Shown: positions 4,112-50,615 of the stretch, piece after piece
Layout: each line of letters opens with the position of its first letter
How positions within the stretch are numbered: the stretch's first letter is position 1
NCBI GenBank assembly: GCA_017962005.1
Contig: JAGCWE010000131.1
Span: 10,068 to 74,067 of the forward strand
Reading direction: 5' to 3'
DNA from: Paludibacteraceae bacterium
Lineage (GTDB): Bacteria; Bacteroidota; Bacteroidia; Bacteroidales; Paludibacteraceae
DNA length: 64,000 nt
The notes under the pieces: generated by a model
Databases searched by the model: none
What the model was told of the DNA's origin: nothing
Seen by the model: the letters and a program-made list of their open reading frames with translations, nothing else
Program-made: the position numbers and the translations under genes

Positions 4112-5650
4112 TTATCTCCTTGTCCTTGAGGTGTTGTCGCTTGAGGATTTGGCATCGCGTACACCGGTGTTCTCGTTCGCGCGGCTGCGCGTTGTGCTTT
4201 TCGTTGAGGTGGCTGCCGGTGTAGCTGTTGTGGTCTTGGCGGCACGGTTCGTTGTAGCCGGATTGGTTGTGCCCTGATTGGTCTCGGCACGGTTGCTTAT
4301 GGCGCTGCTGCGCTCCGAGACCTTGCTGCGCGTGGATGTCTGTCCGGTGGTACGGTTGGTTTTCGTGGTCGTGGTGACTTTGCGGGTGGATGTGGATGTC
4401 GGGTCGGTGGTTGTGGTGGTAGTCGTTATTTTCGTCTGTGTCGGCGATGCCTGGACACGTGTCTGGGTCGTTACCTGCTTGTCGCCGTCCACCATCCGTG
4501 TCGTTGAATTGGAGCGTGTTGTGTTGCCCGATTTGCGCGATGTGGTTGTTGTGGTGCTGTTAGCGGTCCGGCTCGTTGTGGTCACTTTCCCGTTTGCGGC
4601 GGCGTTTGCTTTTGTGCCCGTTGTGGTTGCGCTTGTATTCGTGCTTGTGCTCGTCCGTGTGGCGGAACGTGAGGCGGACGATGACTGGGTGCTGTTGTCT
4701 TGGGTGCTGCCGGTTGAGCTGGCTCTCGTGCCGGATGTCGAGGAGGATGTCTTTGTGCGCGTGGAGATGGTGCGGGTGGAGCTGATGTCGCGGGTGCCTG
4801 TCAGCTGGCGCGCATTGGTCGCGCGGGTGCCGTTATACGTTGTCGTCAGGCGGGAGGCAAACGACTGGTCAGGGTACTGGCGTCCGTAGTCATTCCGGTG
4901 GTAGGATTGATATACCGTGGGATAATTGTTGTAGTGATACGTCTCGGCGTAGCCGAAATCGGAGCAGTAGTAGTGGTTGGTGATGTATATGTCTATGTGC
5001 GAATAGTAGGTCTGTTGGGGTTTCGGTGCGTGGTGTTGGTGGCGGGGCGGGTAGTGGTTCCAGTGATAGGGCGATGTCCATACCTTGTAGTTCGCACCCC
5101 ATTGCGAATAGACAGCCGGACGGCTCACAAAGACAGGCTCGATGATATAGTTCGCGCCGTAGATGTACGGATTGCCGACAATCTGGGTGTAGTAACTGTT
5201 CTCAACCACGATAGTGGCGACATCCTGACAGGCGTTCAGCGCATACACGTCCTGTACGATGATCAGGTGTGTGCCGTTGTATATCTGCTCTACCACCCGC
5301 AGGTAGTCCACATATCCGTCGCGGTTCAGGTCCAGATTGCTTATCTGGCGGGTATAGTCGTTGAGGAACCATTCGAACTCTTCCAGTGTGCGTGCCTCTG
5401 CAAAGGCGATGGCTACTGCCTGCAGGTCGAGGTCGTAACTCAAGTCGGAGGTGGCATTGACATAGACGGTTTTCGCAGGTGTCGTCACTGTTTTGGTTGT
5501 AACGACCGTGGTGGCAGGCTGCTTGACAACTACAGTAGCGGGTTGTTTGACCACTACGGTGGTGGGTTGTTTGGTGACCACCGGAGTGGATACAATGCAC
5601 GATGTCAGGCCGAGCGCTGCGGCTATGACACAATAGATATTCCTTTTCAT
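4112..5650 (-). CDS. Lipoprotein with Tyr/His-rich core and ~240-aa Ser/Thr/Arg-rich low-complexity C-terminal tail
   Basis: I chose the internal start MKRNIYCVIAAALGLTSC (ATG at 5650). It has a lipobox and lies 28 nt downstream of a TAnnTTTG box. Other features are the triplicated TVVVKQPA motif, a DLNRDGYVDYL Ca-binding-like motif, and a tail dominated by T/S/R. Confidence 0.6.
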   Translation of the reverse strand: MKRNIYCVIAAALGLTSCIVSTPVVTKQPTTVVVKQPATVVVKQPATTVVTTKTVTTPAKTVYVNATSDLSYDLDLQAVAIAFAEARTLEEFEWFLNDYTRQISNLDLNRDGYVDYLRVVEQIYNGTHLIIVQDVYALNACQDVATIVVENSYYTQIVGNPYIYGANYIIEPVFVSRPAVYSQWGANYKVWTSPYHWNHYPPRHQHHAPKPQQTYYSHIDIYITNHYYCSDFGYAETYHYNNYPTVYQSYHRNDYGRQYPDQSFASRLTTTYNGTRATNARQLTGTRDISSTRTISTRTKTSSSTSGTRASSTGSTQDNSTQSSSASRSATRTSTSTNTSATTTGTKANAAANGKVTTTSRTANSTTTTTSRKSGNTTRSNSTTRMVDGDKQVTTQTRVQASPTQTKITTTTTTTDPTSTSTRKVTTTTKTNRTTGQTSTRSKVSERSSAISNRAETNQGTTNPATTNRAAKTTTATPAATSTKSTTRSRANENTGVRDAKSSSDNTSRTRR

Positions 5651-5677
5651 GTTCGGTTGGGTTTGGTTAAACAACGG

Positions 5678-5685
5678 CAAAAATA
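5678..5685 (-). promoter_or_regulatory. Bacteroides-type -7 promoter box (TATTTTTG on minus strand)
   Basis: The plus strand reads CAAAAATA, i.e. TAnnTTTG on the minus strand, 28 nt upstream of the ATG at 5650. Confidence 0.5.
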
Positions 5686-5800
5686 CAACTCCTTTTTGAT
5701 ATGCCGATACATTTGCACGCTTTTTATTTTCTCTCTGTTTTCTCAAGCCGTTTTGAAGTGAGCGGTTATTCTGATATTTTTGGCCATGCGGAATATAACC

Positions 5801-5886: not shown

Positions 5887-8556
5887 TTATTCGGCACGCT
5901 GACCCTGTGCGTCGTAGCGTACGCCGTTGCGCTCGATATAGAGGATGCCGTTCTCAATACGTTTTTCGGTAACGTCAACCACTTCGCCGTCTTCGGTCAG
6001 TTCTTTAGTAGTCTCCACGCCGTCAAGACTGATAACAACACGGCGGGGTGCGCCCAGATTAACTATGCGGTGGAAGTACGAACGGAAAGCACGGAATGTG
6101 GTACCGCCTTCAGTCTTGACATAACGCAGGTTGTTGCCTGTTGCAAGATAGAAATCGGGTTTCTGGGCATCGTTAATCAGTGTAGTCTGCCACGGCAAAC
6201 TGATAAACTGTACTTGATTGGACTCGGCAGTTACGGTCTGTTGCGCAGGTGCTTCGTCTATCGTTACATGGTCGAACTCAAGGTCGCTCAGAGTGGTCAT
6301 CGTGGGAACAATGAGGTAAGGCACGTTGGCTTTCATCTCGTAGGTGCGGCGGAAGTCAAGACTGATATATGCAGCCGTATTGGTGCCCGACATAGTTGCA
6401 TCTTGAAGTTCATACACAGCACCACGGAACGGGTGACCTGCAGGAATGTCGAAGTCGAACGGAGCGCAGAATGTCATCCAGCTGCCTTCAGTGAGCTGTC
6501 TGCCTTGCATAATAACGGTCAGCACTTCGCCGTCGTGTCCGCTATAGAGAGAGGTGTAGTAAGCCTGGTTGTGGTTGTCCTCAAGCGTGATAGTGGTATT
6601 ATTAGCGAACGTAGGAGTATAGGTCAAATCACTGCCAAGTGTACGGATATCAATAACGGCTTCTTCTTCGTTGTCTTCTACCCAACCGTTGAAGTGGTAG
6701 TAAGCGTTCGGAACAGCCTGAATGGTAACGCTCTTGCCTGCACCGAATGTAAATACTCCACCTGTGGAGCTTACTGTTTGCGTATTGCCTTGTGAGGTAA
6801 TAACAACCTGTCCGTTGGCATTGGCGGCGAAATTGCCGATGGTGATATTGTAAGTAACAGGACCAGCCTCTATAATCTGTTCGTCGAAGCTGGCAGTGAA
6901 TACCATATTGCCGCTGACGGTCATTGCATCAACTTGGGCATTCGAATAGGTGTTCCCCGTACCTTCAAGAAGCCATCCGATGAAGGAATATGTGTGTGTC
7001 TCATCACCAATGCGCTGAGGGTCAATGGCTGGGCGGTTGGTAATTAAATCGCCACTGTGATAGTCACTCTTGACAGCAGGATTCTGATCCTCCGCCGATG
7101 TGCGGAAGGTTACAGAGTAGGTAGGAATCGCGGTGTAATTGGCGGTGTAAGTCTTATCGGTAGTTACAGTGAACTCCTGTGTGGCATTTGTACTAAGAAC
7201 ACTATTGCCGTCTTTCCAGTTCGTAAATTCATAACCATTGACATCATCATCGGCAGTTATCTTAACTTTCTCACCATCATTGCAACGATAAGTATGTGTA
7301 GCAACCACACTGCTACCCACTTTGACTTGGATAGTCAGCACCTTGGCAGCAACACCAGCGCGAACAGGACGGATAGGCATACCGTGATGTGCATAGCCGT
7401 CTCCAGAATGACCTGTACCAGCAGCATCTGTAACCCTAGCTTCGTAACCATTATAACCTAAAAGATAATATGGCATTTTAGTTGCTCCTGAACCCGATTC
7501 GTAGGTAGATGACCAATAATAGCAACAACTTGAACTATTCCATTGTTCCCCACGACCTATACCACAAGCAAGTAATGTAATGGATTGTCCTGCATTGCTA
7601 ACAGTAAATTTATTTGAACTCCATACCCAAGTACAATTGTCTAATAGTTCTTGCCATTCCGCTTGAGTGGGGGTATGGTCGGAAGCATTGGTCGATGTGG
7701 CAACATCATAAGTGCTGTTACCTGTATAAGTGGCTGTTAATGCTGTCGCATCATAATTGGCGTATGTGAACTGATTGTATGAGGAGTTACTTCTTGCGGT
7801 TTTACTTCCCCAAGCATACAGATTGCCCAGAGCATATTCAGAATCAGCACCGAGATTCTTTGTGGACCATAATGTTCCGCTCGGCAGACCCAAATCAACA
7901 TATCCGTCAGGAACTACGGCTGAAGTCCAATTGGTATTGCTGTTGTTGTCCGTGGGACTTACAGTACTTGTCTTGTAAGCAGCAAATACTGCATAATAAG
8001 TAGCATCACTTGCAGAAACCGTATAAGAAGCATTGTTACTTACTATAGTATTTCCATTCTGTGTTGTACTCCAACCTTTGAAATAATAGTTAGCATTTGC
8101 AGAAGCAGTAATGGTGACACTTGTTCCAGAAGCAACTGTGGTGCCACCACTTACAGTACCCATACCGGTGCAACCATCTGCCAAAGCTACGGCAACGGTG
8201 ACATCAGAAACATCAAGTTCAAAGACTGCAGTGATAGTGGGAGCTGAATATTTTGCATACGTATCCCCCATGCTTATACTATTTCCAGAAATAGTAGGAG
8301 AAAGTGTTCCATACGTCCATTGCTTAAACTTATAACTAGAGTTTGTTATAGTATAAGATAAATTAAATGCAACATAAGTTGTGTAAGTTTTCGTAACACT
8401 GGTAGAGGTGCTTATTGAAACAGCACTTCCTTTATCAGGCGTATATGTACCTGATACCGTTGCTACGTTTTCAGGACTTACTCTCACAATAAAATTTACT
8501 GCCCACATCTGCGAGGAGATGAGAGCTACAAGAATTAAAGAAAATAGTTTTTTCAT
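5887..8556 (-). CDS. Large secreted repeat protein (left-arm adhesin); InlB-B-repeat-like 'Y-x-F-x-G-W' modules plus a FISUMP/DUF1566-like segment
   Basis: Signal peptide MKKLFSLILVALISSQMWA. Recurrent modules end in YxFxGW/NW (YYFKGW, YEFTNW, YSFIGW, YHFNGW). There is a segment VDLGLPSGTLWSTKNLGA...YAWG. It is a paralog of 11857-14382. Confidence 0.6.
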   Translation of the reverse strand: MKKLFSLILVALISSQMWAVNFIVRVSPENVATVSGTYTPDKGSAVSISTSTSVTKTYTTYVAFNLSYTITNSSYKFKQWTYGTLSPTISGNSISMGDTYAKYSAPTITAVFELDVSDVTVAVALADGCTGMGTVSGGTTVASGTSVTITASANANYYFKGWSTTQNGNTIVSNNASYTVSASDATYYAVFAAYKTSTVSPTDNNSNTNWTSAVVPDGYVDLGLPSGTLWSTKNLGADSEYALGNLYAWGSKTARSNSSYNQFTYANYDATALTATYTGNSTYDVATSTNASDHTPTQAEWQELLDNCTWVWSSNKFTVSNAGQSITLLACGIGRGEQWNSSSCCYYWSSTYESGSGATKMPYYLLGYNGYEARVTDAAGTGHSGDGYAHHGMPIRPVRAGVAAKVLTIQVKVGSSVVATHTYRCNDGEKVKITADDDVNGYEFTNWKDGNSVLSTNATQEFTVTTDKTYTANYTAIPTYSVTFRTSAEDQNPAVKSDYHSGDLITNRPAIDPQRIGDETHTYSFIGWLLEGTGNTYSNAQVDAMTVSGNMVFTASFDEQIIEAGPVTYNITIGNFAANANGQVVITSQGNTQTVSSTGGVFTFGAGKSVTIQAVPNAYYHFNGWVEDNEEEAVIDIRTLGSDLTYTPTFANNTTITLEDNHNQAYYTSLYSGHDGEVLTVIMQGRQLTEGSWMTFCAPFDFDIPAGHPFRGAVYELQDATMSGTNTAAYISLDFRRTYEMKANVPYLIVPTMTTLSDLEFDHVTIDEAPAQQTVTAESNQVQFISLPWQTTLINDAQKPDFYLATGNNLRYVKTEGGTTFRAFRSYFHRIVNLGAPRRVVISLDGVETTKELTEDGEVVDVTEKRIENGILYIERNGVRYDAQGQRAE

Positions 8557-8652: not shown

Positions 8653-8696
8653 CACACAAAAAGCGGCAATATCGCTTCCTATTGATATTACCGCTT
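8653..8696 (-). terminator. Rho-independent terminator after the nucleotidyltransferase gene
   Basis: 13-bp stem (one mismatch) AAGCGGCAATATC/GATATTACCGCTT, followed on the minus strand by TTTTGTGTG. Confidence 0.55.
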
Positions 8697-8716
8697 TCTT
8701 CGTTATGACATTTTCT

Positions 8717-9013
8717 TTATATTGCCAATCCTGTTCGCATCACATCGTCATATAAAGGCGAATGAGAACCGGCTTCTAAAATGACAGGCTCTATCATTGA
8801 GTTGACCTGACGAGCATATTTCCATAAAGGAGGAACTACCGTGAACCAATTGCCACTGATTTTCGGTACAACAACTGCAACATCTATATCACTGTCCTTG
8901 TGAGCAGTTCCTTTGCTGTAAGAACCATACAGATACACCCTCGCATCCGTATAGTGCTGCAGGATAGCTGCCTTGTACGCCTTGACTATATCTATAACTT
9001 GCTCTTTATCCAT
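8717..9013 (-). CDS. Minimal nucleotidyltransferase (MNT-type, antitoxin-like) domain protein
   Basis: Pol-beta-fold NTase signature YLYGSYSKGTAHKDSDIDVAVVV in a 98-aa protein. Confidence 0.8.
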   Translation of the reverse strand: MDKEQVIDIVKAYKAAILQHYTDARVYLYGSYSKGTAHKDSDIDVAVVVPKISGNWFTVVPPLWKYARQVNSMIEPVILEAGSHSPLYDDVMRTGLAI

Positions 9014-9048
9014 TCTCTCATCTGAAAGAGCTTTTCGGTTTGCGTCTG

Positions 9049-9056
9049 CAAAAGTA
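9049..9056 (-). promoter_or_regulatory. -7 promoter box TACTTTTG (minus strand) for the MNT gene
   Basis: The plus strand reads CAAAAGTA, 36 nt upstream of the ATG at 9013. Confidence 0.55.
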
Positions 9057-9203
9057 CTGCCTTTTCACTAAACTGACAAATATTCAACGAAAAAACAGTA
9101 ATTTGTAGAGTATTCAATTACCCTTTGCGGTAATACCAATACGTCAAAGAGCATTTTTTGATAGCACTCGCTTGTGCTATCACGCAACATTACGCTGCGG
9201 GTC

Positions 9204-10094
9204 TTACAGCCCCTGACCGAAGAGGTTGTAACTACGCGTGCCGCGGATAATCACCACCCTGCCGCCATGCAGCACTTTGCGGGCGGATACGGAGGATGTC
9301 TGTTCATCTGATACGTGCGTCTGCTCCACGGCTGTTGGCGTCTCTGTGTCTTGTGGACCTTCAAACGAGTTGAAATAGTCGCCTATGCCGAAGCAATCGT
9401 TGTACGCCTCGTATGCACCTTCGGGGTAAGTCACTTTCACATCCGGCAACGTACATGCTTCTACATCCGTCCACGGATTGTATGCACCTATACCTTCGCG
9501 CAAAACCTCACAACGGGGAGGGGTTGTTCCCATAAAGCACAACTCCTGCAGTCGGTCAAGCACAATGGCACTCACGCAGAGAGAGTCCAGCGATGCAGGA
9601 AGAACCAGCTTGGAGATATAGTCGGCAGTTTCTTTCCCCACCACCACATAAACCGCTTCCTTCTTTATAAGTTTCAGCGATGAGGGCAGTGTAAGCGTGC
9701 CGCTGACCCAGACATCGTAGAGGGCTCTTTCTCCGAGCGTGACAATAGATGACGGCTCGGCAAAGGTGATGCTGTAAGCTGTAGCACCTTTCAGAGCATT
9801 GTCCTCCAGCTCAGTCACCGTAAAGACCATTTCGCCCTGTGATGTGCCGCCTGTCGAAATCGTTCCCTGCTCTACCGTGATGGTGGCAGGAACAACTATA
9901 TTCTCCATACGGTACTTCTTTGCGTTCTTCTCCTGCGTGGGCAAAAGCGAAGCGGTCATTGTATTAGGGTCACAGCGGAAATATAGTCCGCTTGCATCCT
10001 TTTGTACGAACGGCTGCAACTGCGGCTCGGCTTCCGTCGCTGCCGCACAGAGAAGAATCAACTGGAATAATATGACCTTTCCGAATGTTCGCAT
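9204..10094 (-). CDS. BspA-like leucine-rich-repeat surface protein (left arm)
   Basis: It has a signal peptide and LRR_5-like repeats (...LVLPASLDSL...). It is a paralog of 10816-11697 with the same C-terminal motif ARKVLHGGRVVIIRGTRSYNLFGQGL. Confidence 0.65.
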   Translation of the reverse strand: MRTFGKVILFQLILLCAAATEAEPQLQPFVQKDASGLYFRCDPNTMTASLLPTQEKNAKKYRMENIVVPATITVEQGTISTGGTSQGEMVFTVTELEDNALKGATAYSITFAEPSSIVTLGERALYDVWVSGTLTLPSSLKLIKKEAVYVVVGKETADYISKLVLPASLDSLCVSAIVLDRLQELCFMGTTPPRCEVLREGIGAYNPWTDVEACTLPDVKVTYPEGAYEAYNDCFGIGDYFNSFEGPQDTETPTAVEQTHVSDEQTSSVSARKVLHGGRVVIIRGTRSYNLFGQGL

Positions 10095-10136: not shown

Positions 10137-10283
10137 TTATACGGGATTGTCATCATCTGGCACTGTACCGGGATCGGTAATGGAGCCGGACAAGTTGGCT
10201 GTGGAGCCATCCATCATTGCATGCAGCGCGTACATGACGATCTCTTCGCAGCAGGGAGTAGAATAAGCTTGTTTCTGTTTCAT
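10137..10283 (-). CDS. Small ORF (48 aa), first gene of left arm
   Basis: Not in the ORF track because it is under 60 aa. My hand translation is MKQKQAYSTPCCEEIVMYALHAMMDGSTANLSGSITDPGTVPDDDNPV. It is positionally equivalent and weakly similar to the 46-aa ORF at 10640-10780. Confidence 0.4.
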   Translation of the reverse strand: MKQKQAYSTPCCEEIVMYALHAMMDGSTANLSGSITDPGTVPDDDNPV

Positions 10284-10334
10284 TTGTTTGTCATTTTTAA
10301 TGTTATCAATTGGGGTTATCTGTTAACGACTTAA

Positions 10335-10353
10335 TAAACGACCGTTTTTTCGG
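10335..10353. repeat. Left inverted repeat (IR-L) of candidate invertible promoter
   Basis: TAAACGACCGTTTTTTCGG. Its reverse complement recurs at 10558-10577. Confidence 0.6.
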
Positions 10354-10541
10354 TCGTCGCAGACGGCGCCTTATTATAAACATTATGAGAGTGTTGATAC
10401 AAGCGGCATAAGCCCGTATGTCGGTGAACGGAATGTGTGAATACAGGGAGAGATTGTGTCATAAAAACAGGCAAAATGCCATAAAATCATAAAAAAGAGA
10501 AAAAAACGGTCGAATTGTTTGGCAGAATGAAAAGAGTTCTC

Positions 10542-10549
10542 TACTTTTG
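10542..10549 (+). promoter_or_regulatory. Canonical Bacteroides promoter (-33 TTTG at 10518-10521, -7 TACTTTTG) facing the right arm
   Basis: TACTTTTG with TTTG 20 nt upstream. It is the only TAnnTTTG box on either strand in the 10284-10639 divergent region. Confidence 0.6.
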
Positions 10550-10557
10550 CCACCCTC

Positions 10558-10577
10558 CCTGAAAAAAGGGTCGTTTA
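10558..10577. repeat. Right inverted repeat (IR-R) of candidate invertible promoter
   Basis: CCTGAAAAAAGGGTCGTTTA is the reverse complement of TAAACGACCCTTTTTTCAGG. It matches IR-L at 16 of 17 core positions, with one 1-nt indel. Confidence 0.6.
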
Positions 10578-10639
10578 ACGCCCTGTGGGAAGAAACTATA
10601 GAATAAACCGAATATTAACCTTATAAAACCAACAAGTGT

Positions 10640-10780
10640 ATGAAGAAAACGTATTACTTGCCTCTGACGGAGACAGTTCCGTTTGGCGCCATGGAGCGTA
10701 TTATGGATGCTACCGTTATCAGTGCTGATCCTGTCATTCAAGACGAGGATCCCAGTGATCCCAATGCCATGATATGGTAA
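10640..10780 (+). CDS. Small ORF (46 aa), first gene of right arm
   Basis: My hand translation is MKKTYYLPLTETVPFGAMERIMDATVISADPVIQDEDPSDPNAMIW. It starts ~90 nt downstream of the promoter box, and its stop overlaps the ATG at 10774 of the next ORF. Confidence 0.4.
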   Translation: MKKTYYLPLTETVPFGAMERIMDATVISADPVIQDEDPSDPNAMIW

Positions 10781-10815
10781 ACCCGTCAGCCGGAAGGATG
10801 CTTGAAACGACGGAT

Positions 10816-11697
10816 ATGAACTCGAGTCTGAATCACATAGTGCTTGCAAAGTGCCGCGCGTTGTTGCCGCTGCTTCTGCTTGCGTTTGTTCCGCGGCTTG
10901 CGGCGCAGACGTTCACCTACGATGCCGACGGGCTGTACTACAGTTGCGACCCCGGCACGAAGGAGGCGGTGCTGATTGCCTGCAGGGATGCCAATACCGG
11001 TTATGTCTATGAGCAGGCGAACGTGTTTGTCCCCGCAACCATCACGGTCAGCGGCGCGAGCATGGGAGGTGACAGCAGTTCGGAGAGCGAGAACACCTAC
11101 ACCGTGACGGAGATAGGCGAGGGTGCGCTGGAGGGTGCGTGGGCGCAGACGCTCGCGTTCGGAAAAGGCAGCCAGGTCCGCATCATCCGCCGCAGGGGAC
11201 TGTACGGATTGGGCATCAAGACGCTCGAACTGCCTGCCTCGCTGCGCGTCATCGAGGAGGAGGGATTGTATATCCGTTCGTCGCAGAAAACCCAGTCGTT
11301 CATCGCCACGCTGGTTCTGCCTGCGTCGTTGGACAGCCTCGGCCTGAGCAGCATCGTGCTTAACCGGTTGCAGAAACTCCGTTTCCTCGGAATGACGCCT
11401 CCCAAGTGCGCTGTCGCGGAGGGCGACGCCCGCAACCCGTGGACGGCGGCGGACAACGCCACGCCCGAGGACATAACGGTGGAGTACCCAGAGGGGTGCC
11501 GCGACTTATATAAGGAACGCGTGGGCATAGGCGACTATTTCACCGCCTTTGCCGAGCCGGAGACTCCCACGGGTGTCGAGGAGACGGACGCGGAAACACG
11601 GTCGTCTGCCGGAGCGGCCCGCAAGGTGATGCAGGGCGGCAGGGTGACGATTATCCGCGGCAACCGCACCTACAATCTTTTCGGACAGGGATTGTGA
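10816..11697 (+). CDS. BspA-like leucine-rich-repeat surface protein (right arm)
   Basis: I set the start at MNSSLNHIVLAKCRALLPLLLLAFVPRLAAQ (signal peptide); upstream in-frame ATGs at 10774 and 10798 are possible. It is a paralog of 9204-10094 and ends ARKVMQGGRVTIIRGNRTYNLFGQGL. Confidence 0.65.
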   Translation: MNSSLNHIVLAKCRALLPLLLLAFVPRLAAQTFTYDADGLYYSCDPGTKEAVLIACRDANTGYVYEQANVFVPATITVSGASMGGDSSSESENTYTVTEIGEGALEGAWAQTLAFGKGSQVRIIRRRGLYGLGIKTLELPASLRVIEEEGLYIRSSQKTQSFIATLVLPASLDSLGLSSIVLNRLQKLRFLGMTPPKCAVAEGDARNPWTAADNATPEDITVEYPEGCRDLYKERVGIGDYFTAFAEPETPTGVEETDAETRSSAGAARKVMQGGRVTIIRGNRTYNLFGQGL

Positions 11698-11856: not shown

Positions 11857-14382
11857 ATGAAAAAACTGTTTTCACTAATTCTTATGGCTCTCATCTCATC
11901 GCAGATGTGGGCGGCTACATTAACGTTCTCGACAAATAACGGGACAATATCAGCTACCAAAGGAACTTCTTCTGTAACAAGTGTTACATCCGGATCAAGT
12001 TTATCAACATGGTATGATTATACCATTACAGTTACCTCACCTACTTGGGATTTTGAAAAATGGACTGTGACCTATGGATCTACTTCTGCAGACGTAACAA
12101 CCTCTGCTGTCACGAATACTCTAACTTTTACCCCAAGCACAAGTGGTACAAGCAGAATCCTAAAGTTCTCAACTAAAAGTTCACCAAGTAACATTACTAT
12201 TGTTGCTCATTTCATTGACCCAAGTACTGTTCCTTCGGGTCCAGTTGCACCGACAGCTGGGGCAAAAGTGAGCTATACTGCTACTCCGGGAACAAACGCT
12301 ATGCAATTAGGTCCTAATGTGGAGATTCCTAATTTCTCCAATTCTGTAGATTTAGGTTTCGCGGTGCTTTGGGCAAAAAAGAGTGTAGGTGCTTCTTCTG
12401 TTGATAGTAGAGGAACGAGATACACGAATTCAGCAGCAAAAGCATTGTCTTCTGCTACACTTGGAGGACTTGGTTGGCGCCTCCCGGCAGCTGCTGATTT
12501 TCAATCATCAGGTGGACTTTATGATCTCAACGTAAATGCTGTTGGCAACAATGTTGTTTTAACTCACAAAACGGCTTATAATGGTGTCGAACTTATAATT
12601 GCGACGGAAGGAGCTAGCGCAATGGATTTGTGGTGCAGTTATTCATCCGGTTCATACAATTACTACGGTCGTGCAAATAGAACTAGTAAGACATGGAGTT
12701 ATCCGAATAGTTCAAATAGTTCATCGTATGAGGCTTGGGTACGTCCTGTCTTTGACCTCGCAGCCGCCGGCATCAAGAAACTCACTATTAACGTAGTGAA
12801 AGATGGTGTTACCACCACGAACAACTACTACGTGGCAAACAATCAGCAGGTTGATATTACACCTGCAACAGTTAGCGGTTACAACTCTTCATGGACCAGT
12901 GGTGTCAGCGGAACGGGTAAAAAGACGTTCACCGTTACCTCAAACACTACCGCTACGATAACCTATACAGTGGCTATTACTTACGTTACCGCTACGTTCA
13001 ACAACTATGATGGTACGCAGTTGTATCAGAACACTTCCGTTGTTTCCGGAACGACTCCGACTTACAGCGGTTCAACTCCGACCAAACCGAGCACGCAGAC
13101 TGTATCTGAGGTTACCACCTACTCCTTCACAGGATGGAGTCCCGCTCTTGGTGCTATCACGACCAACACCACCTATACGGCGCAGTTCTCTTCTTCGACC
13201 GCTCCGCGCCAGTACCTCATCCGCTTCCTGCAGGAGGACGGCGAGACCGTAATTCAAAGCAGCAACGTCAATTACGGCGGAAACCCCATTGCCCCGGCTG
13301 ACGAGGATATGACAAAGATAGATGACGAAAACTACACTTACACTTTCGCGGGATGGGATGCCAATAATGACGGTATCGTGGACGAAGTGGCGGAAGTGAC
13401 CGGCGCACAGGACTATGTGGCTGTGTTCACCGCAACGCCGATTGTGGTAGTGCCCACTTACAACATCACCGTAGGCGCATACAGCAACGGTACTGTAACG
13501 CTGACAGCAGGCGGCGACGTGCAGGTTGTTCCTGCGGAAGGCGGCGTATATAACTACCTGGAGGGAACCACCATCATCGTCAAGGCTACAGCCAATCGAG
13601 GCTTCCACTTCACGGAGTGGAGCGACCATACCACCAACGCCAGCGTGCGCGTGCGCGAGATCGATGAGAACAAGACGTTCACCCCGACCTTCGCTGCCAA
13701 CACGCCGTTCACCATGCTTGACACATGGACTGAGGCGGACTGCCTGAGCAACTACGACTTCGCCAATACGCTGACCGTTGTTCTTGACGGACGCACCTTC
13801 ACCGCTGACCAGTGGGCTACGCTGTCCGTACCGTTCACCACTACGCTTACCGCGGATGACGCCCTTTACAATATGGTTTACAGACTCAGTGTTGCCACAC
13901 TCTCTCAGGATGGCGGAAGCATGCATTTCGAGTTCGTGCGCACCAATGCCATTGAGGCGAACGAGCCTTATCTGATTGTGCCGCGCCAGGCGGTCAATGA
14001 GGTGGTGTTCTACGGAGTTAAACTTGAGACACCCGTTGAGAAACATCCCACTACGGATAACCGTGTTGAGTTCGTCAGCAGCCTGTGGAAGCGGACCATC
14101 TACGGCCGCAACGAGTTCTATGTAGGCGCGAACAGCACCCTGCGTTACGCCTCCACCACCGGTACGACCGTGAAGGGCAACCGTGCGTTCTTCCGTAAGA
14201 TTAATGACGCCGCTTCTGCTCCTCGTCGCGTTGTCATCAGCATTGACGGTGTGGAGACAACGAAGGTTCTGACCGAGGACGGCGAACTGGTTGACACCAC
14301 CACCAAGCGCATGGAGAACGGTATTCTCATCATCGAGCGCAACGGTGTCCGTATGGATGCACTGGGCAACCGTATCGACTAA
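11857..14382 (+). CDS. Large secreted repeat protein (right-arm adhesin), paralog of 5887-8556
   Basis: The signal peptide MKKLFSLILMALISSQMWA matches the left copy at 18 of 19 residues. It has YxFxGW-type modules (YSFTGW, YTFAGW, FHFTEW). The C-terminal ~55 aa are conserved with the left copy. Confidence 0.6.
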   Translation: MKKLFSLILMALISSQMWAATLTFSTNNGTISATKGTSSVTSVTSGSSLSTWYDYTITVTSPTWDFEKWTVTYGSTSADVTTSAVTNTLTFTPSTSGTSRILKFSTKSSPSNITIVAHFIDPSTVPSGPVAPTAGAKVSYTATPGTNAMQLGPNVEIPNFSNSVDLGFAVLWAKKSVGASSVDSRGTRYTNSAAKALSSATLGGLGWRLPAAADFQSSGGLYDLNVNAVGNNVVLTHKTAYNGVELIIATEGASAMDLWCSYSSGSYNYYGRANRTSKTWSYPNSSNSSSYEAWVRPVFDLAAAGIKKLTINVVKDGVTTTNNYYVANNQQVDITPATVSGYNSSWTSGVSGTGKKTFTVTSNTTATITYTVAITYVTATFNNYDGTQLYQNTSVVSGTTPTYSGSTPTKPSTQTVSEVTTYSFTGWSPALGAITTNTTYTAQFSSSTAPRQYLIRFLQEDGETVIQSSNVNYGGNPIAPADEDMTKIDDENYTYTFAGWDANNDGIVDEVAEVTGAQDYVAVFTATPIVVVPTYNITVGAYSNGTVTLTAGGDVQVVPAEGGVYNYLEGTTIIVKATANRGFHFTEWSDHTTNASVRVREIDENKTFTPTFAANTPFTMLDTWTEADCLSNYDFANTLTVVLDGRTFTADQWATLSVPFTTTLTADDALYNMVYRLSVATLSQDGGSMHFEFVRTNAIEANEPYLIVPRQAVNEVVFYGVKLETPVEKHPTTDNRVEFVSSLWKRTIYGRNEFYVGANSTLRYASTTGTTVKGNRAFFRKINDAASAPRRVVISIDGVETTKVLTEDGELVDTTTKRMENGILIIERNGVRMDALGNRID

Positions 14383-14422: not shown

Positions 14423-14467
14423 GTGCCGGAAATGTGTACGTTTACACATTTTCGGCACTTCTTTTTG
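14423..14467 (+). terminator. Rho-independent terminator of the right-arm operon
   Basis: 16-bp stem GTGCCGGAAATGTGTA / TACACATTTTCGGCAC (one mismatch) followed by TTCTTTTTGTG. Confidence 0.7.
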
Positions 14468-14541
14468 TGTGTTTTTACACATTTTCGGCACTTCTTTTTG
14501 TGTGTTTTTACACATTTTCGGCACTTGTCCGTGTGTGCTTG
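14443..14541. repeat. Three tandem copies of a 33-nt unit (TACACATTTTCGGCACTTCTTTTTGTGTGTTTT)
   Basis: Units start at 14443, 14476 and 14509. The unit is the 3' arm plus T-tract of the preceding terminator. Confidence 0.85.
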
Positions 14542-14672: not shown

Positions 14673-14906
14673 GATATATGCAGGATTTCTTCGTAATCCT
14701 TCACCCTTCGGTGTGAAGTCTTACAAATCAAAACGAAAAAACCTCACTTGAAAGTGAACTTTCAGATGAGGTTTTCTGTTTCGGTTAGTGATATATGCAG
14801 GATTTCTTCGTAATCCTTCACCCTTCGGTGTGAAGTCTTACAAGCCATAAAAACAAACAAGCGCTTGAAAGTAAACTTTCAGACGCTTGTTCATTTTCAT
14901 GTCTCG
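14673..14906. repeat. Two tandem 117-nt units, each an identical 54-nt structured module plus a hairpin with compensatory stem changes
   Basis: The 54-nt module GATATATGCAGGATTTCTTCGTAATCCTTCACCCTTCGGTGTGAAGTCTTACAA occurs at 14673-14726 and 14790-14843 (54/54 identical). The following hairpins share the core CTTGAAAGTnAACTTTCAGA, but their outer stems differ with pairing preserved (AACCTCA..TGAGGTT vs ACAAGCG..CGCTTGT). Confidence 0.8.
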
Positions 14907-14980
14907 TGATCCATGCAGGATTCAAACCTGCAACCCCCACATCCGTAGTGTGGTACTCTATTCAGTTGAGCTAATGGACC
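14907..14980 (-). tRNA. tRNA-Arg (anticodon ACG)
   Basis: I folded the cloverleaf by hand. Acceptor GGTCCAT/ATGGATC (one G-U pair), D stem GCTC/GAGT, anticodon stem CCACA/TGTGG with loop CTACGGA, T arm GCAGG-TTTGAAT-CCTGC, discriminator A. CCA is not encoded. Confidence 0.9.
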
Positions 14981-41271: not shown

Positions 41272-43041
41272 TTATCTGCAGTTTTTAAAAGCGTTCTTGC
41301 CCACTTTGATGCCGCTCAGGTCGGGTGTCTGCAGTTTGATGCAGTCGCGGAAGGCCTCTTTGCCCACTTCTTCAAGGCTGTCGGGCCACTCCACTTTCTG
41401 CAGGTTCTTGCAGTCCGCAAATGCGCTCTCGCCTATCACCAGAAGACTCTTTGAGAACTTCACCTCCTGCAGGCTGCGGCACGTGGCGAAGGCGCGGGCG
41501 CCCACTTTCTCAAGCGTGGCGTTCATATATACCCTGCGCAGGTTGATGCACTGCTCGAATGCCCGTTCGCCCAGTGTCTCCAGTTCCTTGGGTAAGCTGA
41601 TTTCTGTCAGTTTGATGCAGTGGAGGAATGCCTCTTGCTCGATGACGTGTACGTGTTCGTTCATCGTTATGCGCTCCAGGGTCTGGCAGTTGGTGAACGC
41701 GTTCTTGCCGATGCGGAACAAATCCTTCGGGATGTTGATTTTCTCCAGCATCATGCAGCCCATGAAGGCCTCGTCGTCTATTGAGTACAGGCCTTCCGGC
41801 AGACGCACCCCGTACAGGCGTGTGCAGTCTTTGAAGCAGCCTTTGCCCACTTGTGTGACTGCATAGGGCACCTCCACCTTGAACAGGGTCTGGCAGCCCG
41901 CAAACGCCATCTCGCCGAGGTATTCCACTGTTGTGGGGAATACTATCTCTTCCAGTTGTGAGCAGCCGTAGAACGCGCCGTCATCAATCCGTTCGGTCTC
42001 CTTCGGCAGTTGGATGTGTTTGAACTTCCGGCACGCGTAGAAACATGCCATCGGGATGCCTTTCAGTTTGTCCGAGAGTGTCTGATTCTCAAGGTTCAGG
42101 CAGCCGTAGAACGCCCCTGCGCCCAGCGATTCAAGCGTTGCGGGCAGCGTGGCTGAGGTCAGGCGTTCGCAGCCGTAGAAGGCGTACATGCCCACTTTCG
42201 TCACCATGGAGGGTATTACCGCCTCGCGCAGTTCCGTGCAGCCCATGAACGCCCCGGCGGGTATCTCCCACAGGCTGTCAGGCAGCACAATGGAGGTTAG
42301 GACTTTGTTGTCCTTGAACGCGCCGCTTGCTATCAGACGGACGGGTTTCTTGCTTGAAAAGGTGTATTTCGCTTTGATGCCCGCATTGGTATGGATTAGG
42401 CAGCCGTCCACGACGAGCGAACCTTTCTTCCAGTGGTTCTCGTCAAGGTACAGGGCTGTTCCGGCGAGGATGTCTTCGCCGATGTGCCGTACCGAGGCAG
42501 GGATGTTTATCTTGGTCAGGTTCTTGCAGCCCTTGAATGTGTCGTGGTCTATCTCGCGCAGTCCGTCCGGCAGGATGACGCGTGTCACGGTCTTGTTGTT
42601 CTCAAAGGCGCCGGCGGCTATCAGGCGCACGCCTTCCGGCACTTCGTACTTGGGGGCTATGTCCTTGCTTGTGGCTATCAGGCAGCTGTCAATAATCAGC
42701 GCGCCGTCCTCCCAGAATGTCTTGTTCTTCATCAGTCCCGTGCCGTCAAACGCGCTGCGGTAGATGTGCTCGATGCTCGATGGGATGACGATGGCTTCGA
42801 GGTGCTTGTTGCCTTTGAACGCCTTCTCGCCGATTTCGGTCACGCGGTATGTGCGGTTGCCCACGCGTATCTCCGACGGGATGACGAGGTCGCCGTACGC
42901 TTTCGGGGTTTCTGTCACCTGCGCCGTACATTCTATCGGGTCAAGCAGGTAGTAAATCTCGTTGTAGAGAGTCTTTTCTTGTGCGTTGCCGTTCCATAAT
43001 GCCCCGAACACTGCGAGGACTGACCATACGAATCTCTTCAT
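41272..43041 (-). CDS. BspA-like leucine-rich-repeat (LRR_5) surface protein
   Basis: It has a signal peptide followed by ~20 repeats of the pattern I(P/G)xxAFxxCxxLxxIxIPxSV. It lacks the C-terminal motif seen in the small LRR proteins at 9.2-11.7 kb. Confidence 0.8.
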   Translation of the reverse strand: MKRFVWSVLAVFGALWNGNAQEKTLYNEIYYLLDPIECTAQVTETPKAYGDLVIPSEIRVGNRTYRVTEIGEKAFKGNKHLEAIVIPSSIEHIYRSAFDGTGLMKNKTFWEDGALIIDSCLIATSKDIAPKYEVPEGVRLIAAGAFENNKTVTRVILPDGLREIDHDTFKGCKNLTKINIPASVRHIGEDILAGTALYLDENHWKKGSLVVDGCLIHTNAGIKAKYTFSSKKPVRLIASGAFKDNKVLTSIVLPDSLWEIPAGAFMGCTELREAVIPSMVTKVGMYAFYGCERLTSATLPATLESLGAGAFYGCLNLENQTLSDKLKGIPMACFYACRKFKHIQLPKETERIDDGAFYGCSQLEEIVFPTTVEYLGEMAFAGCQTLFKVEVPYAVTQVGKGCFKDCTRLYGVRLPEGLYSIDDEAFMGCMMLEKINIPKDLFRIGKNAFTNCQTLERITMNEHVHVIEQEAFLHCIKLTEISLPKELETLGERAFEQCINLRRVYMNATLEKVGARAFATCRSLQEVKFSKSLLVIGESAFADCKNLQKVEWPDSLEEVGKEAFRDCIKLQTPDLSGIKVGKNAFKNCR

Positions 43042-45035: not shown

Positions 45036-45062
45036 CGCGTTTGATTGATTGTGTTCTGTAAG

Positions 45063-46256
45063 ATGCGTAAAAAATATCTTTTCTTCTTGTTGTGTCTGAC
45101 CCTGTCTGTGTCTGTCTTCGGGCAGGGTGATGAGTTGTCTGTCGCCGAGCGCAATGCGCGGCAGGGTTTCAACGACACTATCGACCGCCTCGCTCCTGAT
45201 TTCGTGTTGGTCAGCCTCTGCATCGCCGACCCGACGGATTGGCGCGAAGATGCGTTAGGTGCATCAGGACATGCGTTCCTGCGTCTCAGGTGCCCGGTTT
45301 TTGGTCTCGATTATTGTTTCAGTTATGAAGGGGAGAATGTGAATGATAATCTGTTTCGCTATTTGAGCGGCAAGACAAAGATGGGAATGTTTGCCGTGCA
45401 TACGGACGAGTATTTGGAGGACTATAGGAAGTGGAACCGTTCGGTGCATGAGTACGCCTTGGCCTTGCCTCCGGAGGTCGAGCAGCGCTTGTGGGAGATA
45501 ATGGACAATCATCTGACGAAAGGTCTGGTTCTCCGCCATGATTTGAACAAGTATGGCTGTGCCATTACTGTGGTTCGTTACATTAAGAAAGCCCTTGGTG
45601 ATGTGCCGGTTGTCTATGCTGCGGACTCTGATTTGGAGGGCATGACGCGTCGTGAGATTGGGTATCGTTCGTTGGCTTCTCATCCTTGGTTGCGTTTGAC
45701 ATCCATGATTTTTACCGACAACCGTGCGGACAGTGAATTGCCGATAGACGAGAAGTTGATTATACCTGCCGATTTGGCACAGGTCTGGCAGCTGGCCACG
45801 GTGCAGAATCAGTCTTTTGCAACCTATGTGGGCGATGTCGTGGAAGGTGCTCCGTTGGACAGTTCGGAACCTTGGTTTACGCCGATGTTGGTGGCTGTTT
45901 TGATTCTGCTTCTGACCATAGGTTTTGCGTTTACCGGATATCCGTATTGGGATTGGTTGTTATTGGGCGTACAGGCTCTTTTCGGCATAGCGTTGGTTGT
46001 GCTGTGGATTGTTATGAAAGAGTTCGGAAGCGCGGCTTGTTTGCTGATGGTGTTGTTCAATCCCTTGCCTCTTGTCTGCTGGCGTTGGCATCGTTATTGG
46101 GCATTGGCGTATGCTCTGTTGCTCGCGGTAGGCATTGTCGTTCTTGCCTGCTGGCCGCACATGTTGGTTGATCCGGCATTCTTGGTGCTCGCTGTGTCTT
46201 ACGTGGTGTTATTGGGTAAGGAGGGCATCAAGTCCCGTCTGAGTGTTCGCCGGTGA
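45063..46256 (+). CDS. DUF4105/Lnb-like membrane protein (periplasmic N-domain plus C-terminal TM bundle)
   Basis: It has a signal peptide (MRKKYLFFLLCLTLSVSVFGQ) and a GHAFLRL motif typical of the DUF4105 (Lnb N-terminal) domain. There are 4-5 C-terminal TM helices. Confidence 0.5.
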   Translation: MRKKYLFFLLCLTLSVSVFGQGDELSVAERNARQGFNDTIDRLAPDFVLVSLCIADPTDWREDALGASGHAFLRLRCPVFGLDYCFSYEGENVNDNLFRYLSGKTKMGMFAVHTDEYLEDYRKWNRSVHEYALALPPEVEQRLWEIMDNHLTKGLVLRHDLNKYGCAITVVRYIKKALGDVPVVYAADSDLEGMTRREIGYRSLASHPWLRLTSMIFTDNRADSELPIDEKLIIPADLAQVWQLATVQNQSFATYVGDVVEGAPLDSSEPWFTPMLVAVLILLLTIGFAFTGYPYWDWLLLGVQALFGIALVVLWIVMKEFGSAACLLMVLFNPLPLVCWRWHRYWALAYALLLAVGIVVLACWPHMLVDPAFLVLAVSYVVLLGKEGIKSRLSVRR

Positions 46257-47419
46257 GTTATCCGCTTCTTCCATATTCGCAGTTGGTGTTCGATTTGCTC
46301 AGGACCAATCCGGACGTGTACTGGACTTGTTTCTGTATGCGGCTGGATAAGAAGAAGGTGGATGTCGGGCGCTTGAAGCGGGCGATGGAACAGGCCATTC
46401 GGAATCATCCTGTTTTCTTTATGCGTGTGGACGGGAGCGGACAGCAGCGGTATGAACCCCGGCCCGATATGCTGCATGGTCAGTATTATTCGGTGGATTT
46501 TGTGGAAGACGGGCAGTTCGTGGATGTGCGTGTGAGAAAGAACCGCATATTGGGCGACGGGCGGAGCGATCGTCTTATTATGGAGGATGTGATGCGAGCG
46601 TATTGCAATTTGCCGCTGGAGCACGATGATTATCTGGATTATTTGCAGCGTGTTGAGCAGGAGAGGCAGTCTCCGCGTTATCAGCGGAACCGGCAATGGC
46701 TGGAATCGGAATATGGGCAGCTGTCTTGTCCTGTTCATCCGGTGACGGACGTACCGGTTGACATGGCGGATATGGAGGAAGAGGGCATGCTGACGGAAGA
46801 TTATAGCCCGATGCGGTCAGACTTGAACCGCTTGGGCGAAGAGCGGCTTGTTACATTGACGGCATTCTTCTCGCTTGCGTCCGCGTTGGCAATGATGGAG
46901 TATAACGACTGCAACGAAGCGGCATTGACGTGGGCGTATGAAGGTCGTGAGCGTCCCGAAGAGCAGCGCATCTTTGGAAGTCTGCACCGCGATATTCCCT
47001 TCCAAATCAAAAATTTGAAATCAGAAAAAATCGTACCCTTTAAGGGTAAAGAAATCAGAAATCAGAAATCGGATTTGATCCGACAGGCTCGTAATCAAAT
47101 CCGCTCCGGCATTGCGCATAGTGGTTATCCGTTTACGCTTGTTTGTCCGCATACGGATATTTGGAACTATGCGTTGAATGTGTTGGAGCAGTCTTCAATG
47201 CAGGCGAAGATGGCGGATGTGCCGTTCCCGTTCGAAGTGTATGAGCTGGAAGATGCGCCGCATGTGGCGTATTCGTTGATGGATGTGGAGATTTATAATG
47301 AAGAGCGGTTGCTGGTCATGTATCGCTATTCCGCTACGCATTACAAGGAATCGTCTGTCCGCCGCTTTGCGGCATTGGTGAGAAAATATGCCGGATGGCT
47401 ATTGGAAGATGAAGGATAA
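46253..47419 (+). CDS. Condensation-domain-fold protein with degenerate catalytic motif
   Basis: The GTG start overlaps the upstream stop (GTGA). The N-terminal half resembles an NRPS C-domain or PapA-type acyltransferase, but the HHxxxDG position reads NRILGDG. It contains a low-complexity insert, FQIKNLKSEKIVPFKGKEIRNQKSD. Confidence 0.4.
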   Translation: MSYPLLPYSQLVFDLLRTNPDVYWTCFCMRLDKKKVDVGRLKRAMEQAIRNHPVFFMRVDGSGQQRYEPRPDMLHGQYYSVDFVEDGQFVDVRVRKNRILGDGRSDRLIMEDVMRAYCNLPLEHDDYLDYLQRVEQERQSPRYQRNRQWLESEYGQLSCPVHPVTDVPVDMADMEEEGMLTEDYSPMRSDLNRLGEERLVTLTAFFSLASALAMMEYNDCNEAALTWAYEGRERPEEQRIFGSLHRDIPFQIKNLKSEKIVPFKGKEIRNQKSDLIRQARNQIRSGIAHSGYPFTLVCPHTDIWNYALNVLEQSSMQAKMADVPFPFEVYELEDAPHVAYSLMDVEIYNEERLLVMYRYSATHYKESSVRRFAALVRKYAGWLLEDEG

Positions 47420-48542
47420 AAGGGATATGGTGGAAATCTTGCGGCAGTTGCTGGCAGCCGATTCAGCCTTGCTGCAGCTTGCTGGGCAGTCGCTGGCGCA
47501 GGCGGCGCGGGCGAATCCGCACCTGCGCACCAATCCCGTGCGCTCGTTGGATGACTGGTTCGCTTATCTGGAGCGTTTCCTGCATCGGATGCCTTGGCAG
47601 ACGATGGATATAGGTGAAGACGCCTCCTTCTTCCGCCGCATAGACCAGAATATAGGCTATTTCTATTTCCTCATCGACCAGCCCCTCGATGCCCTCAGGA
47701 ACTGCGGTTATATCTGGCCTTCGTTGCAATACGAACCGCGCATTGCGGCATGGCTTGTGGACTACAACAAGGCTTGGGGCGAATGGCTGGGTGGTGCGGA
47801 TAGTTGGAATGATGAATATTACCGGTTGGCGCGTACGGACAGCCGCTTTGAATTGGATACCGACCGCTATGAGTCACCCGATAACTGGCACTCATGGAAT
47901 GATTTCTTTGCCCGCAGACTGCGCCTTCCCCCTTTCAATTTTCCACTTTCCACTTTCCACTTTCCGCTTTCCACTTTCCACTTGACCGCTCCTTGCGACG
48001 GTGTACTGATGAACTATCCTGTGAAGACAATGAGTACGGATCATCTGCAGGACTTGTTGGGCGGCAGCCCCTGTGCGGAGAGGTTTGAAGGAGGAGAGGC
48101 GGTGCATATAGTGCTTGATGTCTTCGACTATCATCGTTTCCATGCGCCGTGTGCGGGCAGGGTGGTGGAGCGGAAGATTATACCTGGTATCCATGCCGGC
48201 GGCGGAGTCATTATCTGGGATGAGGCGGAAGGACGCTACCGCTATGAGCAGTGTGGTGCCACGGACTTCCAATCGCTTGAGACCCGCGGAGTGCTGGTGT
48301 TGGATACACCCGGCTTCGGTCACATTGCGCTTGTCGCCGTAGGTGTCCAGCAGGTCAGTTCGGTTGTCTGGTCCTCCAATCTTCAATCTTCAATCATAAA
48401 TCATAAATCCCCAATCCGTCTCTCGCAGGGAGACGAGTTGGGGTCCTTCCTCTTCGGTGGCAGCGATATCGTTCTTCTCTTCGAACCGGGTAAGGCCCCG
48501 CGTATTACCGAGAAATCGGTTAAAGTAGGGGATATCTTATAA
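47409..48542 (+). CDS. Phosphatidylserine-decarboxylase-family (pyruvoyl-dependent) decarboxylase with long N-terminal extension
   Basis: PSD-family blocks are WNDFFARRL ... APCDG ... HRFHAP ... GDELGSFLFGGSDIVLLFE, with GGS at the self-cleavage position. The start is uncertain (47388, 47409 or 47427). Two heptamer tracts lie inside the gene. Confidence 0.7.
   Translation: MKDKRDMVEILRQLLAADSALLQLAGQSLAQAARANPHLRTNPVRSLDDWFAYLERFLHRMPWQTMDIGEDASFFRRIDQNIGYFYFLIDQPLDALRNCGYIWPSLQYEPRIAAWLVDYNKAWGEWLGGADSWNDEYYRLARTDSRFELDTDRYESPDNWHSWNDFFARRLRLPPFNFPLSTFHFPLSTFHLTAPCDGVLMNYPVKTMSTDHLQDLLGGSPCAERFEGGEAVHIVLDVFDYHRFHAPCAGRVVERKIIPGIHAGGGVIIWDEAEGRYRYEQCGATDFQSLETRGVLVLDTPGFGHIALVAVGVQQVSSVVWSSNLQSSIINHKSPIRLSQGDELGSFLFGGSDIVLLFEPGKAPRITEKSVKVGDIL
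47941..47982. repeat. Heptanucleotide tract (TTCCACT)x6, one variant unit, in frame within the decarboxylase gene
   Basis: TTCCACT x3, TTCCGCT, TTCCACT x2 make 42 nt and encode FPLSTFHFPLSTFH. Confidence 0.9.
48375..48416. repeat. Heptanucleotide-period tract (nnCAATC / nnAAATC x6) in frame within the decarboxylase gene
   Basis: TCCAATC TTCAATC TTCAATC ATAAATC ATAAATC CCCAATC, encoding SNLQSSIINHKSPI. Confidence 0.85.
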
Positions 48543-48592
48543 AAAATCGGATAAGTCCGCGATTTTTCTTGCATATATCATATTATTTGTAG

Positions 48593-48600
48593 TACTTTTG
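48593..48600 (+). promoter_or_regulatory. -7 promoter box TACTTTTG
   Basis: It lies 64 nt upstream of the ATG at 48664. Confidence 0.55.
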
Positions 48601-48663
48601 CAGCGAATTTTACGTAACGAACTTTTCGACACGACAAAAGTGTTACTGTAATTGGGTATTATT

Positions 48664-49800: not shown

Positions 49801-49820
49801 CCACTGATAACTGACCACTT

Positions 49821-50564: not shown

Positions 50565-50566
50565 AA

Positions 50567-50613: not shown

Positions 50614-50615
50614 CA

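Follow-up and report, generated by a model that had tools for sequence, protein, structure and literature searches.

The stretch of Paludibacteraceae DNA analysed here (64,000 nucleotides of contig JAGCWE010000131.1, hereafter the window) carries at 10335-10577 a short segment that is very probably a promoter inverton of the Mpi type, that is, one turned by a serine invertase, lying between two divergent paralogous operons, one running leftward (arm A) and the other rightward (arm B). That the related loci belong to this type as a family can be said with still greater confidence. An initial annotation, made from the letters of the sequence, had read the segment as an invertible promoter that toggles expression between the two arms, and this reading is now supported by the conservation of the repeat pair, by segments that are inverted between related contigs, by the occurrence of both promoter-to-arm pairings and by sites of the Mpi type. 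An inverton is unsurprising in principle in a member of the Bacteroidales; the either/or layout is unusual.

An inverted repeat encloses the only recognizable promoter between the two arms

The inverted repeat claimed between the divergent arms is real. Its left and right copies (Table 1) are complementary at 16 of 17 positions (94%), with a spacing of 209 nt, and the single mismatch, a C-to-G change, falls at 10569, beside the central dinucleotide and within the right copy's inner half-site. When the 356-bp intergenic region (10284-10639) was shuffled, a 17-mer inverted repeat with at most one mismatch arose in 0 of 300 shuffles, and in the 64-kb window the motif was found three times at up to three mismatches, against an expectation of 0.11, two of the three being this pair. 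The longer version of the repeat given in the initial annotation (10335-10353 against 10558-10577) does require the 1-nt indel that was stated with it. The presumed crossover dinucleotide is AC at 10341-10342 in the left site, with its complement GT at 10570-10571 in the right site, and the distances from site to start codon are 52 nt and 63 nt on the two sides.

The segment contains a third, partial copy of the site, which had been listed as a caveat and was confirmed: it is complementary at 12 of 12 positions to the inner half of the left site (10339-10350), is oriented like the right site, and has a degenerate outer half (CGAAT). This copy is probably a relic of a multi-site arrangement, comparable to that of the three-site relatives described below. 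The hairpin proposed at the left repeat stood as a palindrome, ACGACCG-T6-CGGTCGT, but not as a fold, which was not significant (z -1.7); the leader of arm B did not fold significantly either (z -0.15), and a terminator or riboswitch reading of the two was dropped because of these values. An Rfam search returned no RNA family in the intergenic region, the whole window holding a tRNA only, and thus neither a known RNA family nor a significant RNA structure accounts for the repeat.

The interior of the segment consists of A-rich upstream DNA with a single Bacteroidetes-type promoter at its right end, which stops 11 nt short of the right site and currently points at arm B. The combination of TACTTTTG and TTTG is the sole match of the TAnnTTTG type on either strand of 10284-10639, even with one mismatch allowed in the -7 element; over the same region the leftward form of the motif, CAAAnnTA, is absent and the minus strand has no -7-like motif even at one mismatch. 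The two-strand scan therefore bears out both that a single canonical promoter faces the right arm and that the left arm is without a recognizable promoter in the sequenced orientation. Transcription is predicted to start at about 10555-10562, a few nucleotides before or within the right site. A sigma-70 promoter scan is uninformative for Bacteroidetes.

The architecture is conserved in rumen and gut relatives

Genome and metagenome look-ups placed all related loci (denoted here by L numbers) in metagenome-assembled genomes (MAGs) of Paludibacteraceae or Bacteroidales from the rumen or gut. The family of the 296-aa protein of arm A is tiny, with 29 clusters of relatives, the named ones from Paludibacteraceae MAGs, and a protein-based metagenome scan yielded 12 mostly distant or truncated loci, none of them informative on orientation. 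In nearly all related loci, inverted repeats spaced 170-275 bp apart surround a TTTG/TAnnTTTG promoter that lies beside one of them, and the window at 10440-10722 shares 67% identity with the L016 switch, which is in the ON orientation.

The arms of these loci divide cleanly by orthology. A type A arm consists of a small open reading frame (ORF) of the family MKQKQAYSTPC... and a protein of 294-300 aa, and a type B arm of a small ORF of the family MKKTYYLPxTE... and a protein of 282-307 aa. Both arms are present in L010, L011, L013, L018 and L045, as well as in the split MAG contigs L021 and L023, and a single type B arm is present in L016, L022, L024, L026 and L027. Since the single-arm loci also carry the repeat pair, the repeat is not a mere trace of an inverted gene duplication.

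In the MAG Red_deer_4_mag_9, the arm B DNA of L022 (3696-4776) is 91.6% identical to that of the window (10613-11692); the match begins 27 nt upstream of the small ORF, and the L022 switch is of another site type (central TC) and without arm A. A matching arm B joined to a different type of site, with no arm A, suggests that switch cassettes and arms are exchanged as modules, as they appear to be on the sequence evidence.

The segment is inverted between closely related contigs

Inversion was seen directly when related contigs were aligned. The stretch L016 4624-4794 aligns in reverse with L022 3578-3408 (92% over 172 bp), and the gene-side flank (L016 4778-4940 with L022 3643-3805) is direct and collinear. 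At each site the inner half has changed places with that of the partner site, the outer half having kept its position. The promoter of L016 faces its operon, and that of L022 points away. Likewise, L045 and L013 have collinear flanks with 98-99% identity, between which the 332 bp separating the outer sites are inverted (96.7% identity); against L018, a 310-bp block of L045 is inverted at 99.7% identity, and in L023, which is a MAG contig end, the promoter is joined to the arm B side, inverted relative to L018.

The promoter thus abuts arm A in L010, L011, L013 and L018, and it abuts arm B in the window as well as in L023 and L045; among the single-arm loci, the switch is ON in L016, L024 and L027 and OFF in L022 and L026. 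The exchange points lie within a 14-nt identical core, and the breakpoints fall in sites of 17-25 bp located 52-79 nt upstream of the first ORFs. Contigs also break at the sites: L021 begins at one, and L048 and L049, which come from two different runs, begin exactly at the first base common to both alternative junctions, the position expected from a branched assembly graph with both states in the sample. The switch also accounts for the recurrent contig breaks at this locus in MAG assemblies.

Three sites, rather than two, are found in L013, L018, L023 and L045, the third lying about 91 bp from the arm B site and in direct orientation to it (regions L013 4440-4780, L018 1770-2100, L045 2100-2430, L023 1-160 and, for the arrangement with the deletion, L010 4410-4640). 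The arrangement of L045 corresponds to an inversion between sites 1 and 3 and that of L023 to an inversion between sites 2 and 3, and the arrangement of L010 and L011 equals a deletion between the direct sites 1 and 2 of the L013 arrangement. Two different inversions and one deletion match the observed arrangements, which suggests that in this sister lineage the element may act as a small multi-state switch.

The sites resemble the repeat of a known invertase, with an exact core in TT-type relatives

The sites are quasi-palindromic and about 24 bp long, being made up of an A-tract, AAACG, two central bases, CGTTT and a T-tract. Read from the outer flank toward the interior, those of the window are AATAAACG-AC-CGTTTTTTCGG and GTTAAACG-AC-CCTTTTTTCAG, those of L010, L013, L018 and L045 are AAAAAACG-TT-CGTTTTTTCGG and GTTTAAACG-TT-CGTTTTTTCGG, and those of L016 and L022 are ACAAACG-TC-CGTTTAT and TTAAACG-TC-CGTTTAT; L024 and L026 have a central TC, and the site of L027 reads AAGGG-TT-CCCTT. 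The central dinucleotide varies by lineage (TT, TC or AC), always agrees between partner sites and is never self-complementary. At sites of the Hin/Gin type, the crossover dinucleotide of a serine invertase must match between the partners, and by analogy the pairwise-matched dinucleotide seen here would be the signature of a serine-invertase crossover site, with the corresponding cleavage chemistry.

The TT-type sites (L010, L013, L018 and L045) read AAACGTTCGT, which agrees at 10 of 10 positions with the Mpi repeat ARACGTTCGT and overlaps the GTTCGTTTAA repeat of Bacteroides intestinalis. In the quotation of Coyne 2003 given in PMC8375218, ARACGTTCGTN is the repeat of the Mpi-controlled promoters of Bacteroides fragilis; in B. 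intestinalis the GTTCGTTTAA repeat flanks capsular polysaccharide (CPS) promoters of 183-186 bp, with the start site inside the proximal repeat (PMC8375218). Mpi itself belongs to the serine recombinases and inverts 13 distant regions (PMC4747536).

The closest relatives of arm A, at L043 (1-40) and L044 (1-37), have a 296-aa protein with 95% identity and the same inserted MNT gene. Their junction differs, with two tandem AA-type cores (GACGAACGTTTAATCGAACGTTTTTTCGG) at which both contigs end, and the AC-type pair of the window is by this comparison specific to its lineage.

State of the switch in the window's own lineage and alternative explanations

Compared with Mpi-type promoter invertons, the segment has the expected repeat geometry, an internal promoter near one repeat, palindromic sites of the crossover type and, in sister lineages, both orientations; the fit is incomplete for the exact core consensus, for flipping within its own lineage and for the recombinase. 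Both orientations, for which the initial annotation proposed to search, were found in sister lineages (L013 and L018 versus L045 and L023, and L016 versus L022) but not in that of the window. Nine loci, from six samples, were recovered by exact look-ups of both small ORFs, and five of them span the segment; all five of these independent assemblies are 99.9-100% collinear with the window, with no flipped copy, and one Logan contig (L003) passes straight through the entire segment. The exact interior 31-mer had 0 matches in JGI metagenome contigs, so no flipped junction could be assessed there. The end of contig L008 at window position 10387 was not counted as a sign of heterogeneity, since it does not lie at a site. 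The window cores agree with ARACGTTCGT at 8 of 10 positions on the left (AAACGACCGT) and 7 of 10 on the right (AAACGACCCT), the deviations being the central dinucleotide plus one half-site base, the latter being the substitution beside the crossover dinucleotide of the right site. The statement that no recombinase gene lies in the window was confirmed by a Pfam scan, which found no Resolvase or integrase domain in the 37 main window ORFs; the suggested invertase search was carried beyond the window edge by look-ups with the SusD and HipA genes, which covered 10 kb on the left, and the genes called there contained no such domain. Finally, between the switch and the 889-aa gene of arm A lie the inserted MNT gene, which has a promoter of its own, and a strong terminator. 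Taken together, these observations count against an active two-way toggle in the window. As to the recombinase, the lack of one nearby is compatible with a master invertase acting in trans, as Mpi acts on many distant promoters.

It is conceivable, if unlikely, that the switch family is real and the window element is locked or strongly biased, so that its promoter is fixed on arm B and arm A is silent or decaying. The single orientation of the five spanning assemblies, the contig that runs through the segment, the substitution next to the crossover position and the lack of an invertase nearby speak for this explanation. A minority orientation, however, is compatible with five consensus assemblies; imperfect half-sites also occur in the relatives L024 and L026; all four arm A ORFs are intact, although no promoter adjoins the switch on that side; and both sites share a derived AC, against TT or TC in relatives, which is expected only if compatibility was maintained. 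The last three of these points speak for continued function, and we lean, with some reserve, toward the switch being active in the window's lineage. Less probable still is that the element inverts but turns arm B alone ON and OFF, arm A being transcribed from an unrecognized promoter or by read-through. Single-arm relatives do use the element as a plain ON/OFF switch (L016 ON; L022 and L026 OFF), Bacteroidetes promoters can depart from TAnnTTTG, and the terminator insulates the large arm A gene; yet the minus strand of the intergenic region lacks even a one-mismatch -7 motif, and sister-lineage assemblies have the promoter next to arm A in four cases and next to arm B in two.

That the repeat is a non-recombining remnant of an inverted duplication (a paralogous 5' leader), or a pair of operators for a regulator, is very improbable. 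The similar distances from repeat to start codon, the likeness of the leaders outside the sites in relatives (GTGGATAAA) and the palindromic form of each site, as in operators, would agree with such an origin. It is contradicted by the interior that is physically inverted between near-identical flanks, and it sits badly with the repeat pair that surrounds the promoter in the single-arm loci L016, L022, L024, L026 and L027, with the co-variation of the central dinucleotide between partners and with the match of the sites to a known invertase repeat. The promoter inverton between two operons is thus retained as the preferred reading, with one reservation on how far it reaches: given the MNT promoter and the strong terminator, the 889-aa gene is not obviously reached from the switch. 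The "two adhesin sets" of the initial annotation accordingly hold as paralogous arms, while the extent of what is switched may have been overstated.

Proposed mechanism and comparison with known systems

Each quasi-palindromic site is presumably bound by a recombinase dimer, and a serine invertase encoded in trans would synapse the two inverted sites, cut at AC/GT and rotate the 209-bp interior. In the sequenced orientation, transcription would run rightward into arm B, through the 46-aa ORF and the gene of the 307-aa protein and probably also that of the 841-aa protein. After inversion, the promoter would read arm A leftward, through the 48-aa and 296-aa genes, from a position about 11 nt short of the left site, and the flipped molecules would carry the junctions CTTAATAAACGACCCTTTTTTCAGGGAGGGTGGC and GCGACGACCGAAAAAACGGTCGTTTAACGCCCTG. 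As neither arm has another recognizable promoter beside the switch, the two arms should be expressed alternately.

The closest counterparts are the Mpi invertons of the B. fragilis polysaccharide promoters and of the B. intestinalis CPS loci PVR7-12. In common with these, the window has short inverted repeats around a promoter segment of about 170-210 bp and a promoter that abuts one repeat (in Bacteroides the start lies in or beside the proximal repeat). The Bacteroides recombinase is unlinked to its targets, and none was found near the switch here; the core ARACGTTCGT/GTTCGTTTAA is exact in the TT-type relatives, whereas the window differs at the central two bases, where it has AC instead of TT, and at one base of the right half-site. 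Unlike them, it belongs to a rumen Paludibacteraceae host, its cargo consists of uncharacterized secreted proteins rather than capsule operons, regulators of the UpxY/UpxZ type are lacking, and operons lie on both sides, so that each orientation would be ON for one paralogous set.

In layout, the sap locus of Campylobacter fetus is similar: its single sapA promoter is reportedly carried by an invertible segment with S-layer cassettes in opposite orientation on either side, and inversion between these divergent paralogous surface-protein genes swaps the paralog that is expressed, as proposed here. The sap segment, however, spans several kilobases and is recombined in a RecA-dependent manner within long conserved 5' coding regions, whereas the breakpoints here fall in sites outside the genes. 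The sites of Hin, Gin, Cin and Pin (hix/gix) are quasi-palindromic, about 26 bp long, with A/T-rich half-sites and a 2-bp crossover that matches between partners; as in the present family, inverted sites give inversion and the central pair sets polarity. Those systems differ in that the invertase is encoded inside or beside the segment and needs a Fis-bound enhancer, where here no linked recombinase was found and no enhancer is known, and in Gin, Cin and Pin the promoter lies outside and coding ends are swapped, where here the promoter lies inside. Extra repeat copies at one end, as in L013, L018, L023 and L045, recall the IVp-I switch of B. fragilis Tsr19 (BF2766), in which promoter and operon are separated by differing numbers of repeats among strains and states; Tsr19, in contrast, is of the tyrosine recombinase type, its gene lies beside the target, and the repeat sequence is different.

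Promoter invertons are a hallmark of human-gut Bacteroides, and with the present loci the Mpi-type system reaches uncultured Paludibacteraceae of the rumen and takes on a new cargo, namely secreted proteins that carry B-repeat domains and form small families. The wiring, with one promoter serving two divergent paralogous operons, is less common, and cells would express either set instead of being ON or OFF; in the literature searched no description of a two-way Mpi-type toggle between divergent operons was found, which is weak evidence of absence. We give even weight for and against the proposal that a single inverton acts as a true two-way selector, providing mutually exclusive operon expression without a cross-repressor acting in trans, that the third site of the sister lineages makes it multi-state and that the central dinucleotides act as "address codes". 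If this were so, in the sister lineage the promoter could be directed to A, or to B from either close or long range, or the spacer could be irreversibly deleted, and the TT, TC and AC codes would keep each pair self-compatible while the half-sites stayed readable by one invertase. The comparative series, which spans single-arm ON/OFF loci, two-arm toggles, three-site versions, a deletion product and co-varying dinucleotides, is a natural data set on the evolution of invertase sites and the rise of multi-site switches.

Genes of the two arms

Table 1. Features of the switch and of the flanking arms, in window coordinates
Feature	Position	Strand	Remarks
Arm A large gene	5887-8556	-	889 aa; signal peptide and InlB-type B-repeat (Flg_new_2) domains
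Intrinsic terminator	8658-8699	-	between the MNT gene and the 889-aa gene; -24.2 kcal/mol, z -4.5, then U run
MNT-like nucleotidyltransferase gene	8717-9013	-	inserted in arm A; own canonical promoter (-7 at 9049-9056, -33 at 9077-9080)
Arm A gene 2	9204-10094	-	296-aa secreted protein; no Pfam match
Arm A gene 1	10137-10283	-	conserved 48-aa small ORF (family MKQKQAYSTPC...)
Left recombination site (arm A side)	10335-10351		TAAACGACCGTTTTTTC = TAAACG-AC-CGTTTTTTC; half-sites AAACG/CGTTT
Invertible interior	10352-10560		209 bp
Third, partial site copy	10501-10512		AAAAAACGGTCG
Bacteroidetes-type promoter	10518-10549	+	-33 TTTG at 10518-10521; -7 TACTTTTG at 10542-10549
Right recombination site (arm B side)	10561-10577		GAAAAAAGGGTCGTTTA = GAAAAAAGG-GT-CGTTTA
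Arm B gene 1	10640-10780	+	conserved 46-aa small ORF (family MKKTYYLPxTE...ERIMDAT)
Arm B gene 2	10774-11697	+	307-aa paralog of the 296-aa protein (P0015 among relatives)
Arm B large gene	11857-14382	+	841-aa Flg_new_2 protein, paralog of the 889-aa protein

The proteins encoded by the two arms are paralogous, the 296-aa and 307-aa proteins at 47% identity and the 889-aa and 841-aa proteins at 37% identity over 490 aa. Their label as surface proteins or adhesins is putative and is based on signal peptides and B-repeat domains; searches of NCBIfam and Pfam returned no type IX secretion system sorting domain and no function for the proteins of about 300 aa or the small ORFs. The first gene behind the switch is a conserved ORF of 41-49 aa in every arm (window, L010, L013, L016, L017, L018, L022 and L026). 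These small ORFs fall into two families, A (MKQKQAYSTPC...) and B (MKKTYYLPxTE...ERIM[DE]AT), and members of both gave no family match and no signal peptide.

The terminator placed after the MNT gene by the initial annotation was recovered on the minus strand, with the folding energy given in Table 1. The gap between the gene of about 300 aa and the large B-repeat gene, in which the MNT gene lies, is an insertion hot spot for small accessory genes (window 8658-9080, minus strand; L010 6259-6588; L013 5967-8510; L018 3396-3998; L045 197-799 and 4239-5138), its cargo in relatives being HTH_3 genes, a gene for a 184-aa protein, and AAA_14/DUF4143 or ORF6N genes.

Other features of the window

Arm B is separated from a tRNA-Arg gene (14906-14980, minus strand) by a stretch that holds a perfect 33-bp tandem repeat (2.6 copies, 14441-14526) and a 117-bp repeat (1.8 copies, 88%, 14673-14883). 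On the far side of arm A, a 544-aa ORF at 4112-5746 (minus strand), called as 512 aa in the public contig, matched neither Pfam nor NCBIfam and lies where strand skew is strong (AT skew -0.32); in L016, a PEPCK gene adjoins the arm on the far side in its place. Further along, a biosynthetic cluster at 45045-60952 contains four ketoacyl-synthase genes and genes for a condensation-domain protein, a phosphatidylserine decarboxylase, an amine-oxidase-type flavoprotein, an SDR and an AMP-binding enzyme. It is interrupted by an AbiEii toxin gene (58529-59311) and followed by a HipA kinase gene (61485-62585). At 41272-43041 the minus strand encodes a separate leucine-rich-repeat protein of the BspA type (LRR_5, E 1e-135), which has no relation to the switch locus.

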